Shown here: one piece after another, positions 11,561 to 21,801 of the stretch | How the letters are laid out: each line of letters begins with the position of its first letter | How positions within the stretch are numbered: the stretch's first letter is position 1 | NCBI RefSeq assembly: GCF_003334315.1 | Contig: NZ_QOWR01000021.1 | Length of the DNA: 64,000 bases | DNA from: Escherichia coli | GTDB lineage: Bacteria; Pseudomonadota; Gammaproteobacteria; Enterobacterales; Enterobacteriaceae | Reading direction: 5' to 3' (one strand) | Notes under the pieces: model-generated | Database searches by the model: none | Told to the model about the DNA's origin: nothing | What the model saw: only the letters and a program-made list of their open reading frames with translations | Made by a program: the position numbers and the translations under genes

Positions 11561-12433
11561 TTACAGCCACTCTACCCGCAACGACATCTCTGAAGTTGTT
11601 GATTCCCCTGGTGCTAGCGCAATGAGATCACCCCCTTCCGGGCGATGATGATCATCCGGCGCATGGCTCATCGGTTCCAGACAGAAGAAATCAAACGCAT
11701 ATCCTTTATCAAACGCAGGGTCGGAAACAAAGATGAAATAACACGGTGCAGGTGGCGTCGTTTCCATGATGATGGCATAACCTTCCTGCGGCTGCTCGAT
11801 GCGGGCCTGACCATTCCATCCGGCAAAACCATTGTTCACCCACTGGCGCGGCAACGGCGCGGGCTGGTTAAAATCCAGTTCCTGCGGTAGCTGCTCGCAA
11901 AACTCACCCGCCAGCCACTGCTCCCGCTCCAGCCAGTAACCGCTCGCCTGTGCCTGAATCCGCGTTTGCGGCGACAACGGAAAATAAGGATGCCAGCCGG
12001 TACCAAATGGCAGCGTCTCTGCCCCTTGATTGGTGACAGAGAGTGTCACCGTCAGCGTATCCGCCGTTAAATGAAACGCCTGACTTACCCGATAGTGATA
12101 GACACCGCTGCGATGTTCATACACCAGACACAAACTATCATCGCTGTGCGAGACACATTGCCACTCGCCCAGCCAGCCATCGCCGTGTAGATAGTGCGCA
12201 TCCCACTCAACATTCGGTTGCAGTTGATACTCACGCCCCTGCCAGACAAAACGGTTGCCGCTCACCCGGTTTGCAAATGGCACCAGCGGAAAACAGGAGG
12301 CATCGGTTGCCACACCGCTTTTTTTACCAGGACGTAAGAGCGGCGTCGTATCGCGCCAGAAGCCTTCGATTACGCCGCCCTGGTCAGAAACGTCCAGCTT
12401 TAGCGACCCGTGGGATAAGGTATAGATGGTCAT
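11561..12433 (-). CDS. yphB: Aldose 1-epimerase (mutarotase) family protein YphB
   Basis: 290-aa ORF; recognised as YphB. Confidence 0.88.
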   Translation of the reverse strand: MTIYTLSHGSLKLDVSDQGGVIEGFWRDTTPLLRPGKKSGVATDASCFPLVPFANRVSGNRFVWQGREYQLQPNVEWDAHYLHGDGWLGEWQCVSHSDDSLCLVYEHRSGVYHYRVSQAFHLTADTLTVTLSVTNQGAETLPFGTGWHPYFPLSPQTRIQAQASGYWLEREQWLAGEFCEQLPQELDFNQPAPLPRQWVNNGFAGWNGQARIEQPQEGYAIIMETTPPAPCYFIFVSDPAFDKGYAFDFFCLEPMSHAPDDHHRPEGGDLIALAPGESTTSEMSLRVEWL

Positions 12434-12444
12434 CCGCGAACTCC

Positions 12445-13506
12445 TTAATCCGGGAAGTTAATCACAACTTTCCCGCATTTGCCGCTCGCCATCAGCGCAT
12501 AGGCATCTCCAGCCTGTTCCAGCGTGAAGCGATGGGTAATGGCGTTACGCGGCCACAGTTTCCAGTCCGTCAGATCATGGGCGCATTTTTCCATATGGAA
12601 CAGACTGGTCACCCAGGAGCCGATAATCCGCCGTTGATGGTGCATCAGATCGGCGCTGACCTCGAATTCCACTTTTCCGGTTTCACCAATGTAAACCACC
12701 CGTCCCCAGTCAGCGGTGGATTGCAGTGCCAGCAAGCGACCTGCGGCATTACCAGAACAATCGAGCGCAACATCCGCGCCACCGTGGGTGAGTTCGGCGA
12801 TAATCTGCGGCAGACCTTCGGTGGTTGCTAAATAGCCGTGATCCATCACCCCTAACTGTTTTGCCATCGCCAGACGTTCCGGCAGCATATCAACGCCGAT
12901 GATCCGTTTTGCACCGCGACCTTTCGCCAGCATCATCGCCATCATGCCGACCGGCCCCAGACCGACCACCAGCACGTTATCGCTGCCGGAAACTTCGCCG
13001 CGCAAAATCCCTTCATAGGCCGTGCCAACGCCGCAACTGATAAACGCACCATCTTCGTAGCTCAGCGCATCCGGCAGGAGGATCAGATCTTTTTCTTCCG
13101 CCAGCAGATATTCGGCATGACCGCCGTCACGCTGCCAGCCGTAAGCCGCTTTTCCTTTGCCAGTACAAGAGATAGGAAAGCCGCGGCGGCAGTTCGGGCA
13201 AAAACCACAGCCAGAAATGTGATACACCAGCACGCGGTCGCCCTCTTTAAAATGGCGGCAGCCTTGCCCCATCGCCACAATCTGCCCGCACGGTTCATGA
13301 CCGTTGATAAAGCCCTGGTATAACGGTTTATCGGGTGCCGCCGCTGTGGCACGGTGTTGATGATAGATATAGTGGACATCGCTTCCGCAAATCCCGGAGG
13401 ATTTCATTTTGATCAGTACCTGGTTAATCCCCGGCGTCGGCACCGCAACTTCCCGCAGATCGACGGTCGAATTTCCTGGTAAATAAGCTGCCAGCATCGT
13501 TTTCAT
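12445..13506 (-). CDS. yphC: Zn-dependent medium-chain alcohol/polyol dehydrogenase YphC
   Basis: ORF 12445-13539; start at MKTMLAAY after SD gaggga (353 aa); GHEPCG zinc motif. Confidence 0.88.
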   Translation of the reverse strand: MKTMLAAYLPGNSTVDLREVAVPTPGINQVLIKMKSSGICGSDVHYIYHQHRATAAAPDKPLYQGFINGHEPCGQIVAMGQGCRHFKEGDRVLVYHISGCGFCPNCRRGFPISCTGKGKAAYGWQRDGGHAEYLLAEEKDLILLPDALSYEDGAFISCGVGTAYEGILRGEVSGSDNVLVVGLGPVGMMAMMLAKGRGAKRIIGVDMLPERLAMAKQLGVMDHGYLATTEGLPQIIAELTHGGADVALDCSGNAAGRLLALQSTADWGRVVYIGETGKVEFEVSADLMHHQRRIIGSWVTSLFHMEKCAHDLTDWKLWPRNAITHRFTLEQAGDAYALMASGKCGKVVINFPD

Positions 13507-13571
13507 AAATCCCTCATTAACAATACGATTAATTTTCATCCCTGCCGCACCCGCGCCAGGGGCGTTAAGGT

Positions 13572-20200: not shown

Positions 20201-20490
20201 TCATTGTGATAGACAAAATCGCGCTGTTTCACTTTATCCCATGCGCGATGCACCCGACCGCCCAGTTCCGGCAGGATCATCACTTTGATGTAGTCGTTTT
20301 CCAGCCACACCGCCTGCCAGGATTTCAGGGTTTTCTGCTCGCTCAGCGTATCGGTCACGCCGTAGGGATAAACCGCGCCGGACGATCCCTGATAAACGCG
20401 ATTTTCCAGGAACATGGGATGTATATCCTGCGGCCCGGTTTCATAGGTCGGGATCTCAACGCGCTCTTGCCACACTTTTACTGGAGTCAT
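17209..20490 (-). CDS. yphG: Large uncharacterised protein YphG (N-terminal beta-rich domain plus C-terminal TPR-like repeats)
   Basis: ORF 17209-20583 begins with TTG and no SD; start placed at the ATG of MTPVKVWQ preceded by GAGGG (1093 aa); no signal peptide. Confidence 0.85.
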   Translation of the reverse strand: MTPVKVWQERVEIPTYETGPQDIHPMFLENRVYQGSSGAVYPYGVTDTLSEQKTLKSWQAVWLENDYIKVMILPELGGRVHRAWDKVKQRDFVYHNEVIKPALVGLLGPWISGGIEFNWPQHHRPTTFMPVDFTLEAHEDGAQTVWVGETEPMHGLQVMTGFTLRPDRAALEIASRVYNGNATPRHFLWWANPAVKGGEGHQSVFPPDVTAVFDHGKRAVSAFPIATGTYYKVDYSAGVDISRYKNVPVPTSYMAEKSQYDFVGAWCHDEDGGLLHVANHHIAPGKKQWSWGHSEFGQAWDKSLTDNNGPYIELMTGIFADNQPDFTWLDAYEEKRFEQYFLPYHSLGMVQNASRDAVIKLQRSERGIEWGLYAISPLNGYRLAIREIGKCNALLDDAVALMPATAIQGVLHGINPERLTIELSDADGNIVLSYQEHQPQELPLPDVAKAPLAAQDITSTDEAWFIGQHLEQYHHASRSPFDYYLRGVALDPLDYRCNLALAMLEYNRADFPQAVAYATQALKRAHALNKNPQCGQASLIRASAYERQGQYQQAEEDFWRAVWSGNSKAGGYYGLARLAARNGHFDAGLDFCQQSLRACPTNQEVLCLHNLLLVLSGRQDNARLQREKLLRDYPLNATLWWLNWFDGRSESALAQWRGLCQGRDVNALMTAGQLINWGMPTLAAEMLNALDCQRTLPLYLQASLLPKAERGELVAKAIDVFPQFVRFPNTLEEVAALESIEECWFARHLLACFYYNKRSYNKAIALWQRCVEMSPEFADGWRGLAIHAWNKQHDYELAARYLDNAYQLAPQDARLLFERDLLDKLSGATPEKRLARLENNLEIALKRDDMTAELLNLWHLTGQADKAADILATRKFHPWEGGEGKVTSQFILNQLLRAWQHLDAREPQQASELLHAALHYPENLSEGRLPGQTDNDIWFWQAICANAQGDQTEAMRCLRLAATGDRTINIHSYYNDQPVDYLFWQGMALRLLGEQHTAQQLFSEMKQWAQEMAKTSIEADFFAVSQPDLLSLYGDLQQQHKEKCLMVAMLASAGLGEVAQYESARAELTAINPAWPKAALFTTVMPFIFNYVH

Positions 20491-20607
20491 GGTGCCCTCA
20501 ATATTAACAAGACATACTGAATTAAAAGATTTTTGGCAGTGTATTGAACAATCTGGCAATGTTTTCGCGGAATAATCACGCAATTAACTAAACAAGGTTT
20601 AGTGAAG

Positions 20608-21801
20608 ATGAGAGCCTGCATTAACAATCAACAGATCCGCCACCATAACAAATGCGTGATTCTGGAACTGCTGTACCGGCAAAAGCGCGCCAATAAATCA
20701 ACGCTGGCCCGACTGGCGCAAATTTCGATTCCGGCAGTCAGTAATATTTTGCAGGAACTGGAAAGCGAAAAACGGGTGGTGAATATCGACGATGAAAGCC
20801 ATACGCGCGGGCATAGTAGCGGTACATGGCTGATTGCGCCGGAAGGTGACTGGACGCTGTGCCTGAACGTGACGCCCACCAGTATTGAGTGTCAGGTTGC
20901 TAATGCTTGTTTAAGTCCGAAAGGTGAATTTGAGTATTTACAGATTGATGCACCGACGCCGCAGGCGCTGCTGTCCGAAATCGAAAAATGCTGGCATCGC
21001 CACCGTAAATTGTGGCCGGACCATACCATCAACCTGGCGTTGGCAATCCACGGTCAGGTTGATCCTGTGACCGGCGTGTCGCAAACCATGCCGCAAGCGC
21101 CGTGGACAACGCCGGTGGAGGTGAAATATCTGCTGGAAGAGAAGCTCGGCATTCGGGTGATGGTCGATAATGACTGCGTGATGCTGGCGCTGGCGGAGAA
21201 ATGGCAAAATAATTCGCAGGAACGGGATTTCTGCGTGATCAACGTTGATTACGGCATTGGCTCGTCGTTCGTGATTAACGAGCAAATTTATCGCGGCAGT
21301 TTGTATGGTAGCGGACAGATTGGTCACACCATCGTTAATCCGGATGGCGTCGTCTGCGACTGTGGACGTTATGGCTGCCTGGAAACCGTCGCCTCGTTAA
21401 GCGCATTAAAAAAACAGGCGCGGGTATGGCTAAAATCACAACCGGTTAGTACTCAACTTGATCCTGAAAAACTGACTACAGCGCAGTTAATCGCTGCCTG
21501 GCAAAGTGGAGAACCGTGGATCACCAGCTGGGTTGACCGCAGTGCCAATGCCATTGGTTTGAGTCTGTATAACTTCCTCAACATCCTCAATATTAATCAG
21601 ATTTGGTTGTACGGTCGCAGTTGTGCCTTTGGTGAGAACTGGCTTAATACTATTATTCGCCAGACAGGATTTAACCCGTTCGACCGCGACGAAGGACCGA
21701 GCGTGAAAGCGACGCAAATTGGCTTTGGGCAATTAAGCCGCGCACAACAGGTGCTGGGAATTGGCTATTTGTATGTTGAGGCGCAGTTACGACAGATTTG
21801 A
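20608..21801 (+). CDS. yphH: ROK-family (NagC/XylR-type) transcriptional regulator YphH
   Basis: ORF 20602-21801 (GTG); first ATG at 20608 gives 397 aa; divergent from yphG. Confidence 0.88.
   Translation: MRACINNQQIRHHNKCVILELLYRQKRANKSTLARLAQISIPAVSNILQELESEKRVVNIDDESHTRGHSSGTWLIAPEGDWTLCLNVTPTSIECQVANACLSPKGEFEYLQIDAPTPQALLSEIEKCWHRHRKLWPDHTINLALAIHGQVDPVTGVSQTMPQAPWTTPVEVKYLLEEKLGIRVMVDNDCVMLALAEKWQNNSQERDFCVINVDYGIGSSFVINEQIYRGSLYGSGQIGHTIVNPDGVVCDCGRYGCLETVASLSALKKQARVWLKSQPVSTQLDPEKLTTAQLIAAWQSGEPWITSWVDRSANAIGLSLYNFLNILNINQIWLYGRSCAFGENWLNTIIRQTGFNPFDRDEGPSVKATQIGFGQLSRAQQVLGIGYLYVEAQLRQI

Follow-up and report, generated by a model that had tools for sequence, protein, structure and literature searches.

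The yph locus of Escherichia coli, a sugar-utilization operon defined by YphG, a DUF5107 protein with a predicted mutarotase fold and TPR solenoid

Organization and conservation of the yph locus

We analyzed the yph locus of Escherichia coli, which occupies positions 11,561–21,801 of a 64,000-nucleotide (nt) stretch of contig NZ_QOWR01000021.1 (RefSeq assembly GCF_003334315.1), hereafter the window. The locus, an already known “y-gene” orphan, comprises the genes yphGFEDCB and a divergent regulatory gene, yphH, and reads as a sugar-utilization operon built around an uncharacterized enzyme family, that of YphG. Open reading frame (ORF) calls and the RefSeq annotation agree on the gene coordinates, which are listed below with the other features of interest.

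11561–12433, minus strand: yphB, aldose 1-epimerase family; last gene of the operon
12445–13539, minus strand: yphC, Zn-dependent dehydrogenase of the medium-chain dehydrogenase/reductase (MDR) class, polyol/sugar dehydrogenase type; a lineage-specific accessory
13572–14570, minus strand: yphD, ATP-binding cassette (ABC) permease, RbsC/AraH-like
14595–16106, minus strand: yphE, fused double ABC ATPase, AraG/XylG/AlsA/MglA-like
16129–17112, minus strand: yphF, periplasmic CUT2-type sugar-binding protein with signal peptide
17167–17187, minus strand: conserved RNA hairpin at the yphG/yphF junction, with a 9-bp stem, a 5-nt loop and no U-tract
17193–17216, minus strand: operator-like site 2, TTCACTAAACCCTATTAACTGTAA, overlapping the yphG stop codon
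17209–20490, minus strand: yphG, 1093 amino acids (aa), cytoplasmic, DUF5107 family; first gene of the operon
17212–19113, minus strand: YphG residues ~460–1093, predicted superhelix of the tetratricopeptide repeat (TPR) type, ~34 helices
19456–20490, minus strand: YphG residues 1–345, β-domain (DUF5107) with a predicted aldose-1-epimerase fold; the most conserved part of YphG
20583–20606, minus strand: operator-like site 1, in the yphH/yphG spacer and abutting the yphH start codon
20608–21801, plus strand: yphH, ROK-family (NagC/Mlc-like) regulator, divergent from yphG

An earlier description made from the letters of the DNA (the sequence-only reading) had placed yphGFEDCB in this order on the minus strand, with gaps of 11–96 nt and yphH divergent, and both the ORFs and RefSeq match it. 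Read from yphB to yphG, the gaps measure 11, 32, 24, 22 and 96 nt, and a 117-nt spacer separates yphG from yphH. Because transcription follows the minus strand, yphG lies nearest the promoter and yphB comes last. A megablast search with positions 11561–21801 found the locus in 5426 of 5426 complete E. coli genomes, always on the chromosome, and at least 80% of the query was covered in 5371 of them (99%); the annotation labels the genes as yphB through yphG plus yphH. The ratio of nonsynonymous to synonymous substitution rates (dN/dS) of the six yphB–G genes ranged from 0.010 to 0.066 between E. coli and E. albertii (0.056 for yphG) and from 0.024 to 0.108 between E. coli and an Enterobacter sp. 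Further, array and proteome studies report changes in the YphF protein and in yphF and yphG mRNA with conditions, alongside catabolite-sensitive sugar genes. The locus is under strong purifying selection and, given its low dN/dS and the response of its products to conditions, is kept by selection and is not a relic. We also considered a horizontal island and rejected it on the basis of an ordinary GC content (47–57%).

Predicted fold and family of YphG

The sequence-only reading had described YphG as a 1093-aa protein with a β-rich N-terminal domain and a long TPR-like C-terminal region, an architecture recovered by Pfam and by structure prediction. Residues 39–324 match DUF5107 (Pfam PF17128, i-Evalue 3.1e-55), a domain also annotated by RefSeq, and Pfam also gives weak TPR matches. 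The AlphaFold2 model, generated from an 83-sequence alignment with a mean predicted local distance difference test score (pLDDT) of 95.7 and a predicted template modeling score (pTM) of 0.93, divides the protein into three parts: a β-domain (residues 1–345), a second β-sandwich (~355–435) and about 34 helices (~460–1093) that would form a 630-aa TPR solenoid. In the model, the N-terminal domain adopts the β-supersandwich fold of mutarotases and the helical half the tandem-repeat superhelix of TPR proteins, resembling the superhelices of OGT, Ski3, Ctr9 and the APC subunits. Relatives of YphG in the AlphaFold Database, at 18–31% identity, have the same global fold (template modeling scores of 0.79–0.91) and are all labeled only “DUF5107.”

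A phmmer search with YphG against 1.84 billion representatives of 50%-identity clusters returned 5710 relatives, 1156 of them at E ≤ 1e-30. Most are about 1100 aa long and the full-length alignment holds down to ~28% identity, and some truncated entries are present in databases. In the orthologous group, which extends from E. coli to Bacteroidota, Firmicutes and Bifidobacterium, the N-terminal domain is 62–95% identical. The β-domain is the best conserved region: more than 30 of its polar or aromatic residues are kept, and it has the motifs RVYQGSSG, LPELGGR, VIKPAL, GPWISGGIEFNWPQHHRP, FLWWANPAV, DHGKR, PGKKQW and GPYIELMTG..DNQPDF. The conserved residues include R31, Q34, Y41, E64, N65, D85, K86, K100, W110, E116, N118, H122, H123 and R124 in the first half of the domain and N179, W190, N192, H215, K286, K287, W291, W300, D306, Y311, E313, N322, Q323 and D325 in the second. 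The solenoid keeps isolated polar positions (H469, Q472, Y473, Y483, D491, W563, the invariant R782, E818 and R847-D848-D849) and a loop, F876-HPW-E880-GGEG. Conserved polar and aromatic residues in the β-domain, together with isolated polar positions in the solenoid, form the pattern of an enzyme rather than of a generic scaffold.

The structural and remote-homology check of the N-terminal domain that the sequence-only reading had proposed gave a divided answer: the mutarotase fold stands in the model, and no profile links the domain to any enzyme family. The domain matched neither Aldose_epim in Pfam nor galM in NCBIfam; hhalign comparisons of its 83-sequence alignment with alignments of GalM (probability 0.3%) and YphB (3.8%) gave nothing significant; and a YphG profile run against all PDB sequences found only 5cd6. 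A sequence link between YphG and the mutarotases, for which hhalign and the PDB profile search gave nothing, was therefore rejected. By motif position only, G-W-H-P-Y-F in YphB and t-n-H-x-Y-F-N-L in GalM correspond to W-W-A-N192-P-A-V in YphG, with Asn in place of His, and C-L-E-P corresponds to Y-I-E313-L-M, in which the Glu is retained and invariant. YphG seems, on this alignment of motifs, to keep the catalytic Glu as E313 and to have Asn192 in place of the His of the catalytic pair, which in E. coli GalM is His175 and Glu309. Thus, YphG shares the mutarotase fold in its model, fails membership by profile, is probably without the catalytic His, and should not be filed as a mutarotase.

Other differences separate YphG from the aldose 1-epimerases GalM, YeaD, YihR and YphB. 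Profile-level similarity is lacking (hhalign probability below 4%), the histidine of H-P-Y-F/H-x-Y-F appears as Asn in W-W-A-N-P, and YphG has new invariant motifs (GGIEFNWPQHHRP, PGKKQW and DNQPD). The N-terminus of its domain has an extra ~45 residues, a β-sandwich and the 630-aa solenoid are fused to the domain, and a canonical mutarotase is encoded beside YphG. The solved relative, BDI_1685 of Parabacteroides distasonis (PDB 5cd6), is a structural-genomics entry without function; at 580 aa and ~21% identity to YphG, it is missing the last ~500 residues of the solenoid and differs from the invariants of the YphG group at H122, K287 and N322. Searches of Pfam, NCBIfam and the PDB matched YphG to no glycoside hydrolase (GH) or polysaccharide lyase. 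PADLOC returned no match for YphG, YphH or YphB, and the idea of an anti-phage defense system based on the TPR protein was rejected for this reason.

Distant members of the family (27–33% identity) carry signal peptides and one of them is fused to a module like carbohydrate-binding module family 9 (CBM9). Another exported homolog (P0200) is fused at its C-terminus (~290 aa) to an Exo_endo_phos/EEP phosphoesterase domain. In two Ruminococcaceae loci, a gene for a calcineurin-like metallophosphoesterase lies directly 3′ of the YphG homolog (L056, 13293–14339; L063, 8801–9856). These two independent phosphoesterase links and the conserved HHR and KK motifs hint at possible action on phosphorylated or phosphodiester-linked sugars by some members of the family. 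Among stramenopiles, a DUF5107 orthogroup serves as a marker of phagotrophy and is listed with digestive enzymes (PMC8163842).

Gene neighborhoods of YphG homologs

The neighborhoods of YphG homologs were sampled with one genome per GTDB species, which returned 80 loci; the counts given here refer to 79 loci from five phyla and to genes within five genes of the homolog. Neighboring ORFs were called and clustered, and the clusters were named by NCBIfam and Pfam. The sampled lineages include Enterobacterales, Aeromonas, Photobacterium, many Bacteroidota, Paenibacillus, Bacillus, Lachnospiraceae, Ruminococcaceae and Bifidobacterium. A transporter was found in 54 of the 79 loci, a XylE-like sugar porter of the major facilitator superfamily (MFS) in 43 and a CUT2 ABC importer in 9. 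Regulators were of the AraC type in 45 loci and of the ROK family in 11, all of the latter in Gammaproteobacteria. Glycoside hydrolases were present in 40 loci, mutarotases of the GalM or YphB type in 21, zinc-dependent alcohol dehydrogenases (Zn-ADH) in 5 and short-chain dehydrogenases/reductases (SDR) in 4. The hydrolases include GH2 enzymes related to the exo-β-1,4-galactosidase BT4151 (28 loci), GH97 α-galactosidases, and GH36-like, GH95 and GH31-like enzymes; GH35-like neighbors come from sequence only, with no confirmation by Pfam and one weak NCBIfam match, to exo-β-D-glucosaminidase. Many homologs lie in SusC/SusD loci with GH2, GH97, GH95, GH36-like and GH31-like enzymes and sulfatases. 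A search of plasmids for annotated contexts returned the same cassette types and no named function.

The spacing and inheritance of these genes point to a cassette. The MFS porter and YphG genes are usually separated by 2–25 nt or overlap by 4 nt, and in Bifidobacterium and Bacillus the YphG gene overlaps at its end with that for GH2. Between Serratia and Bacteroides fragilis the MFS porters are 59% identical, and the YphG proteins, which are less alike, 43% overall; the pair behaves as a co-inherited or co-transferred cassette. In Aeromonas, Serratia, an Enterobacter and Klebsiella pneumoniae the locus consists of a ROK regulator, YphG, an MFS porter and YphB, with no ABC importer and no dehydrogenase, and a YphB orthologue accompanied YphG in 11 of 11 gammaproteobacterial loci sampled. 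Klebsiella pasteurii, at the same chromosomal site, is organized like E. coli. The two Klebsiella types, ABC plus YphC in K. pasteurii (L005) versus MFS in K. pneumoniae (L089), thus share one site, their YphG proteins being 74% and ~54% identical to that of E. coli, respectively, and represent module swapping within a genus. YphF is only 24–26% identical to the CUT2 binding proteins adjoining Firmicutes YphG homologs, which indicates that the ABC modules were recruited independently.

Individual loci add to the range of partners. Photobacterium pectinilyticum encodes a true MelB orthologue and a GH2 beside its YphG homolog. In Cetobacterium the locus has an ABC importer, an AraC regulator, YphG and an overlapping GalM-like gene, and the binding protein beside YphG is named “arabinose ABC transporter substrate-binding protein” by the Prokaryotic Genome Annotation Pipeline. 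An MglB-like binding protein is also among the neighbors. In a Lachnospiraceae metagenome-assembled genome (L060, 15982–21927), a second CUT2 system lies three genes after the YphG homolog, with an MglB-like binding protein (277 bits) and then two Zn-ADH genes; this arrangement is an independent echo of the E. coli YphFED-YphC. A few Firmicutes loci also encode a sugar dehydrogenase of the SDR type, a dehydratase of the IlvD/Edd type and an RraA-like aldolase.

This survey bears on two further statements of the sequence-only reading. It had outlined a pathway of uptake and oxidation, yet a YphC-like Zn-dehydrogenase lies near 5 of the 79 homologs and a CUT2 importer near 9, and an MFS sugar porter replaces both the ABC importer and YphC in Aeromonas, Serratia, K. 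pneumoniae, Enterobacter and others. It had also called YphG an unusual partner for an ABC sugar system; YphG is instead the conserved center, with a sugar importer adjacent in 54 of the 79 loci and the MFS-YphG pair kept from Serratia to B. fragilis. YphG, not the ABC system, defines the locus, and the ABC importer and YphC are lineage-specific add-ons.

Partner proteins

The gene assignments of the sequence-only reading held for the remaining proteins. YphF, described as a periplasmic binding protein with a signal peptide, has CUT2-type profile matches and a predicted signal peptide, MPKKMRTTRNLLLMATLLGSALFARA/AD; its best NCBIfam matches (AlsB, MglB, LsrB and RbsB) are all far below cut-off and its nearest PDB entry is 5hsg. 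YphE is indeed a double ATPase (503 aa, two ABC domains, AraG/XylG-like at 1e-136) and YphD an RbsC/AraH-like permease. Together YphFED have the layout of a CUT2 importer, with a cluster-B binding protein bearing a signal peptide, a fused double ATPase and an RbsC-type permease, and their Klebsiella orthologues match Peripla_BP_4, ABC_tran (twice) and BPD_transp_2. None of the seven yph proteins passes a curated NCBIfam equivalog cut-off (for example, 64 against 335 for YphF with AlsB, 456 against 689 for YphE with AraG, and 227 against 398 for YphD with RbsC). The substrate that the earlier reading left unassigned has remained so, as no functional study was found in the searchable literature on the yph genes, DUF5107 (PF17128, IPR033396) or BDI_1685.

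YphC belongs to the zinc-MDR class, as proposed: its translation contains the motifs GICGSDVH, GHEPCG, CGFCPNCRRGFPISC and GLGPVG, which supply the catalytic-zinc ligands (Cys and GHE), the Cys4 structural-zinc motif and a Rossmann GxGxxG. It is Tdh/IolM/sorbitol dehydrogenase-like at 1e-50, below all equivalog cut-offs, and closest to threonine, sorbitol and xylitol dehydrogenases and scyllo-inosose 3-dehydrogenase. YphB, assigned to the aldose-1-epimerase family, has its own crystal structure (PDB 3nre, titled “aldose 1-epimerase”), and its fold and catalytic motifs (NRV, LHGDGW, HPYF and CLEP, conserved in 11 orthologues) mark it as a genuine member; the structure has served only as a structural reference or template (PMC5902678). 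The literature also mentions a yphF mutant of uropathogenic E. coli and the use of yphG as a PCR marker for K. pneumoniae. A proteome study detected YphF on levoglucosan, where it moved with XylF, MalE, MglA and YtfQ. This looks like general catabolite derepression, and levoglucosan, which we considered as a substrate from these data, was rejected as unsupported.

Candidate regulatory elements

YphH has NagC/Mlc-like profile matches that agree with its earlier assignment to the ROK family (1e-32 with the NagC model and 1e-30 with the Mlc model, both far below cut-off), and Pfam ROK is recorded for its orthologues. It is described as the third, still uncharacterized ROK regulator of E. coli (PMC4288165, PMC9308461, PMC4797297) and forms its own small clade without the conserved GR linker motif (PMC4288165). 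The yphH/yphG spacer contains a candidate operator (site 1), TTCACTAAAC-CTT-GTTTAGT-TA, which is a perfect 7-bp inverted repeat in E. coli and is followed by a conserved ATTGCGTGA (to ~20574). The site lies 93–116 nt upstream of the yphG ATG, and ten genera of Gammaproteobacteria share its motif immediately before the yphH start codon. The longest ORF of yphH starts at a GTG (20602) and the RefSeq annotation at an ATG (20608), from which the motif ends 1–2 nt away. Because the motif overlaps the yphH ribosome-binding region, it suggests that yphH is autoregulated.

A 24-nt weight matrix built from nine site-1 sequences and applied to both strands of the window at a cut-off of 16 bits gave exactly two matches, site 1 itself (29.9 bits) and site 2 (17193–17216; 30.0 bits). 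Site 2 lies 5 nt upstream of the hairpin, scores 28.4 bits in E. albertii and a weaker 18.9 bits in Klebsiella, and was absent from the MFS-type loci in the same matrix scan. The hairpin between yphG and yphF, which the sequence-only reading had pointed out, is real: GAGCGGCA-N5-TGCCGCTC has a single match in the 64 kb (0.03 expected), folds into a 9-bp stem at −15.9 kcal/mol (z = −3.3) and is conserved in relatives. Its stem is kept in E. albertii, an Enterobacter sp. and Klebsiella, with one compensatory change from A-U to C-G; there is no U-tract in E. coli, and UUUU follows the stem in Klebsiella. Since the Rfam scan returned only sub-threshold matches to elements of the repetitive extragenic palindromic (REP) type, all outside the operon, and the hairpin matched once in the window, it belongs to no known RNA family and is no REP copy.

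The yphG/yphF junction is, on these grounds, a putative composite regulatory node, in which a candidate operator and a conserved stem-loop lie at the seam between the ABC/YphC module and the ancestral cassette. Differential expression across the hairpin is plausible, and the second operator-like copy directly 5′ of it adds a further component to the idea. YphH may bind here, and an internal promoter, roadblocking or looping may operate. A scan for promoter and terminator consensus sequences found no more sites than in shuffled sequences and none in the two intergenic regions, and a search for CRP sites in both regulatory regions gave nothing better than chance.

Surroundings of the locus

The locus is bracketed by REP-type elements at 11482–11551 and 21883–21965 (sub-threshold Rfam matches to naRNA4 and ES036), and RefSeq annotates a 99-nt pseudogene fragment within the right-hand element, between yphH and glyA. 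The complete hcaR-hcaEFCBD cluster for 3-phenylpropionate dioxygenase adjoins the locus (5561–11054) and is ordinary and already annotated. The DoxX gene yphA (11091–11513) lies in E. coli beside yphB and the hca operon, and in Klebsiella and Enterobacter between glyA and yphH (L005, 8195–8617; L089, 6184–6606), which indicates that the neighborhood was rearranged around the cassette. In E. coli NT1F31 (NZ_CP045190.1) the match to the locus falls in two pieces over ~11.4 kb rather than 10.2 kb and points to an insertion of ~1.2 kb, the size of an insertion sequence, within the operon. The PLSDB entries NZ_OL790696.1, NZ_CP134663.1, NZ_CP141089.1 and CP125156.1 are “plasmids” of 4.8–5.4 Mb that carry the chromosomal yph region and evidently represent chromosomes; the chromosomal neighborhood glyA-hmp-glnB is found on NZ_CP093490.1 (339 kb).

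Proposed function and competing explanations

The yph genes form a selected operon with a conserved core of importer, YphG (plus mutarotase) and regulator, and a dedicated locus for carbohydrate uptake and catabolism with a divergent ROK regulator, as first proposed, is supported. Our overall reading, which we hold tentatively and at not quite even confidence, is that YphH controls an operon for the catabolism of a galactose-configured sugar or small galactoside, with YphG acting at the anomeric carbon in the first reaction in the cytoplasm. The galactosidase, GalM, MelB and MglB-like neighbors lend fair support to a neutral galactose- or arabinose-configured substrate, most probably a D-galactose-like or L-arabinose-like sugar, or a small galactoside that stems from the glycans of plants, algae or hosts. 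The ancestral portable core would have been a regulator, a sugar importer and YphG, usually with a mutarotase; in the Escherichia and K. oxytoca-group lineage the XylE-like MFS importer would have been swapped for YphFED and YphC added. There is moderate support for YphG as the first cytoplasmic catalyst, acting at the anomeric carbon. This DUF5107 protein may use a re-tooled mutarotase-fold pocket (E313 kept, Asn192 for His, new HHR and KK motifs) in a β-domain capped by the β-sandwich and the 630-aa TPR solenoid. YphG would most likely split a small glycoside or oligosaccharide hydrolytically or phosphorolytically, the alternative being a ring or anomer rearrangement. Either would yield a free aldose, whose anomers YphB would equilibrate for housekeeping metabolism, and in E. 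coli YphC could then oxidize either this aldose or the aglycone set free. YphH would bind both palindromes, in the yphH/yphG control region and at the yphG/yphF junction, where the hairpin may set the ratio of yphG to downstream yphFEDCB expression.

We lean toward cleavage of a glycoside or oligosaccharide over rearrangement of a monosaccharide, because a cassette of a permease and one enzyme can stand alone only if it yields ordinary sugars, a canonical mutarotase is encoded in addition (as is the case with glycosidases), some members of the family are exported and one is fused to a CBM, and conserved Trp, carboxylates and basic residues abound in the YphG pocket. Several observations weigh against this reading. 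The importers, sugar-porter MFS and CUT2 ABC, normally carry monosaccharide-sized solutes; the closest folds to the β-domain are true mutarotases, not glycosidases; and the GH2 and GH95 partners in Bacteroides have signal peptides and YphG does not, which fits action of YphG on an imported monosaccharide rather than on a glycoside. Sequence profiles link YphG to no enzyme family, so the mapping of its catalytic residues depends on motif position alone, the literature search found no biochemical or genetic datum for any family member, no sigma-70 promoter or CRP site is detectable, and the identity of the sugar is circumstantial. The same importers, periplasmic Bacteroides exo-glycosidases and nearest folds, which are those of real mutarotases, keep a strong rival in play, even if we rate it unlikely: YphG could be a cofactor-free ring-opening enzyme (a specialized mutarotase/pyranase or an aldose epimerase/isomerase) that turns the imported monosaccharide, an unusual tautomer or epimer of a galactose-type sugar, into the form taken up by the Leloir or other housekeeping pathways. 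The invariant E313, at the position of the catalytic Glu motif of mutarotases, and the loci with a sugar 1-dehydrogenase, dehydratase and aldolase set would suit such an enzyme. Plain mutarotation would, however, be redundant with the YphB or GalM mutarotase of 21 of the 79 loci and of all gammaproteobacterial ones, which also weakened a role as a plain “second GalM”; the His of the His/Glu pair is apparently Asn in YphG; and the minimal cassette is without the kinase that an isomerase product usually needs. Further, exported members and the CBM9 fusion make little sense for a monosaccharide isomerase, and the size of YphG (1093 aa), its more than 30 conserved polar residues and its five or more conserved Trp suggest a larger ligand. 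A lactonase in a dehydrogenase-lactonase-dehydratase-aldolase route, as a few Firmicutes loci might suggest, was rejected because most cassettes have no dehydrogenase.

A non-enzymatic role, with YphG as a scaffold or sensor whose mutarotase-like domain binds sugar and whose TPR part recruits a transporter, glycosidase or regulator and thereby governs uptake or gene expression, strikes us as improbable. Its predicted TPR superhelix does resemble the OGT, Ski3 and APC scaffolds, non-catalytic mutarotase-fold domains exist (YidC P1, NDH PnsB2 and GH accessory domains), a regulator always adjoins YphG, and YphG is translationally coupled to GH2 in Bifidobacterium and Bacillus. Yet the regulators (AraC in 45 loci, ROK in 11) and transporters vary while the TPR part stays, the GH2 partner of Bacteroides is periplasmic and YphG is not, catalytic-type residues of the β-domain (E116, H122, H123, R124, H215, K286, K287, D306, E313 and D325) are kept even in exported paralogues, and no PADLOC or other signaling-domain matches were found. 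We consider quite improbable the pathway first outlined from the sequence, in which YphFED imports, YphC is the key catabolic enzyme, YphB is auxiliary and YphG is a peripheral or unrelated passenger. The canonical Zn-MDR nature of YphC, the tight packing of the genes and the pairing of a CUT2 importer with Zn-ADHs near the Lachnospiraceae homolog agree with it, but YphC-like genes occur in only 5 of the 79 loci and are missing from the MFS-type sister loci, which keep YphG, YphB and YphH, a polyol substrate would leave the mutarotase without a role, and yphG is both promoter-proximal and the most widely conserved gene. That the locus is a cryptic or decaying remnant without current function in E. 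coli is scarcely credible, and is largely refuted by the selection data. The literature offers no phenotype or inducer, a sigma-70 promoter is not recognizable and some YphG entries are truncated; against this stand its presence in every complete E. coli genome, with at least 80% of the locus covered in 99% of them, dN/dS values of 0.01–0.07 versus E. albertii, and the detection of YphF protein and yphF and yphG mRNA that respond to conditions.

We also entertain, with more doubt than belief, that YphG founds a new carbohydrate-active family: a converted mutarotase fold (Glu kept, His lost, HHR and KK gained), set in a TPR solenoid, that may catalyze a hitherto unrecognized cofactor-free step, in which a galactose-type sugar or small galactoside is cleaved or rearranged at its anomeric carbon.

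Comparison with known systems

Cassettes of a permease and a single cytoplasmic glycosidase, sometimes with a mutarotase, are represented in E. coli by lacZY/galM, melAB, yicJI and yihOQR. When their enzyme is a glycosidase or phosphorylase, such cassettes can do without additional enzymes of their own, as in lacZY and melAB. Like them, the yph core combines a regulator with a single importer, one large enzyme in the cytoplasm and, in many cases, a mutarotase, without further dedicated enzymes, and the importer beside the Photobacterium homolog is a MelB orthologue, as in melAB. Unlike the enzymes of these cassettes, YphG matches no GH or phosphorylase family by sequence and has mutarotases as its nearest folds; the yph-type importers, sugar-porter or CUT2, are usually monosaccharide carriers, and glycosidase activity is only predicted. 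YphFED shares with the CUT2 importers Rbs, Ara, Xyl, Als, Mgl and YtfQRT-YjfF the defining layout and the ~500-aa fused ATPase, yet falls below every equivalog cut-off, has a single permease gene and is not orthologous to the CUT2 systems adjoining Firmicutes YphG homologs (24–26% identity).

Among ROK regulators, NagC uses two-operator arrangements with looping. YphH has the predicted helix-turn-helix and ROK architecture of NagC and Mlc, and the two copies of a conserved AT-rich palindrome at its locus are reminiscent of the NagC arrangements (for the family, see PMC4288165); it differs in being without the GR linker motif and in that its candidate sites are 3.4 kb apart. A further comparison is with the Bacteroidota polysaccharide utilization loci (PULs) for galactans, xyloglucan and sulfated galactans, as many YphG homologs sit in SusC/SusD loci. 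The E. coli locus, unlike these, has no Sus machinery or glycosidases and keeps only the cytoplasmic end of the pathway.

Significance

The yphGFEDCB-yphH operon is among the remaining core-genome operons of E. coli K-12 without a substrate. New here are the finding that YphG defines the locus, as a member of a large cross-phylum family with constant architecture, a porter cassette and a place in many PULs, and the duplicated operator-like motif beside a conserved hairpin. The problem to explain is a ~1100-aa protein combining a predicted mutarotase fold and TPR repeats, carried in a mobile two-gene porter cassette across at least five phyla and in gut, soil and marine PULs. Assigning its reaction would annotate more than 1000 protein clusters labeled DUF5107, would probably define a new CAZy-type or isomerase family, and would supply a missing piece to models of how the gut microbiota breaks down galactan, xyloglucan and galactosides. 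It would also give YphH, the last uncharacterized ROK regulator of E. coli, an operator and a regulon. If YphG does found a new carbohydrate-active family, its step would be shared by E. coli and gut Bacteroides, by Lachnospiraceae and bifidobacteria, by Bacteroidota of soil and sea and even by phagotrophic protists, and a common route for galactosides or galactose would have been overlooked in the bacterium studied best.

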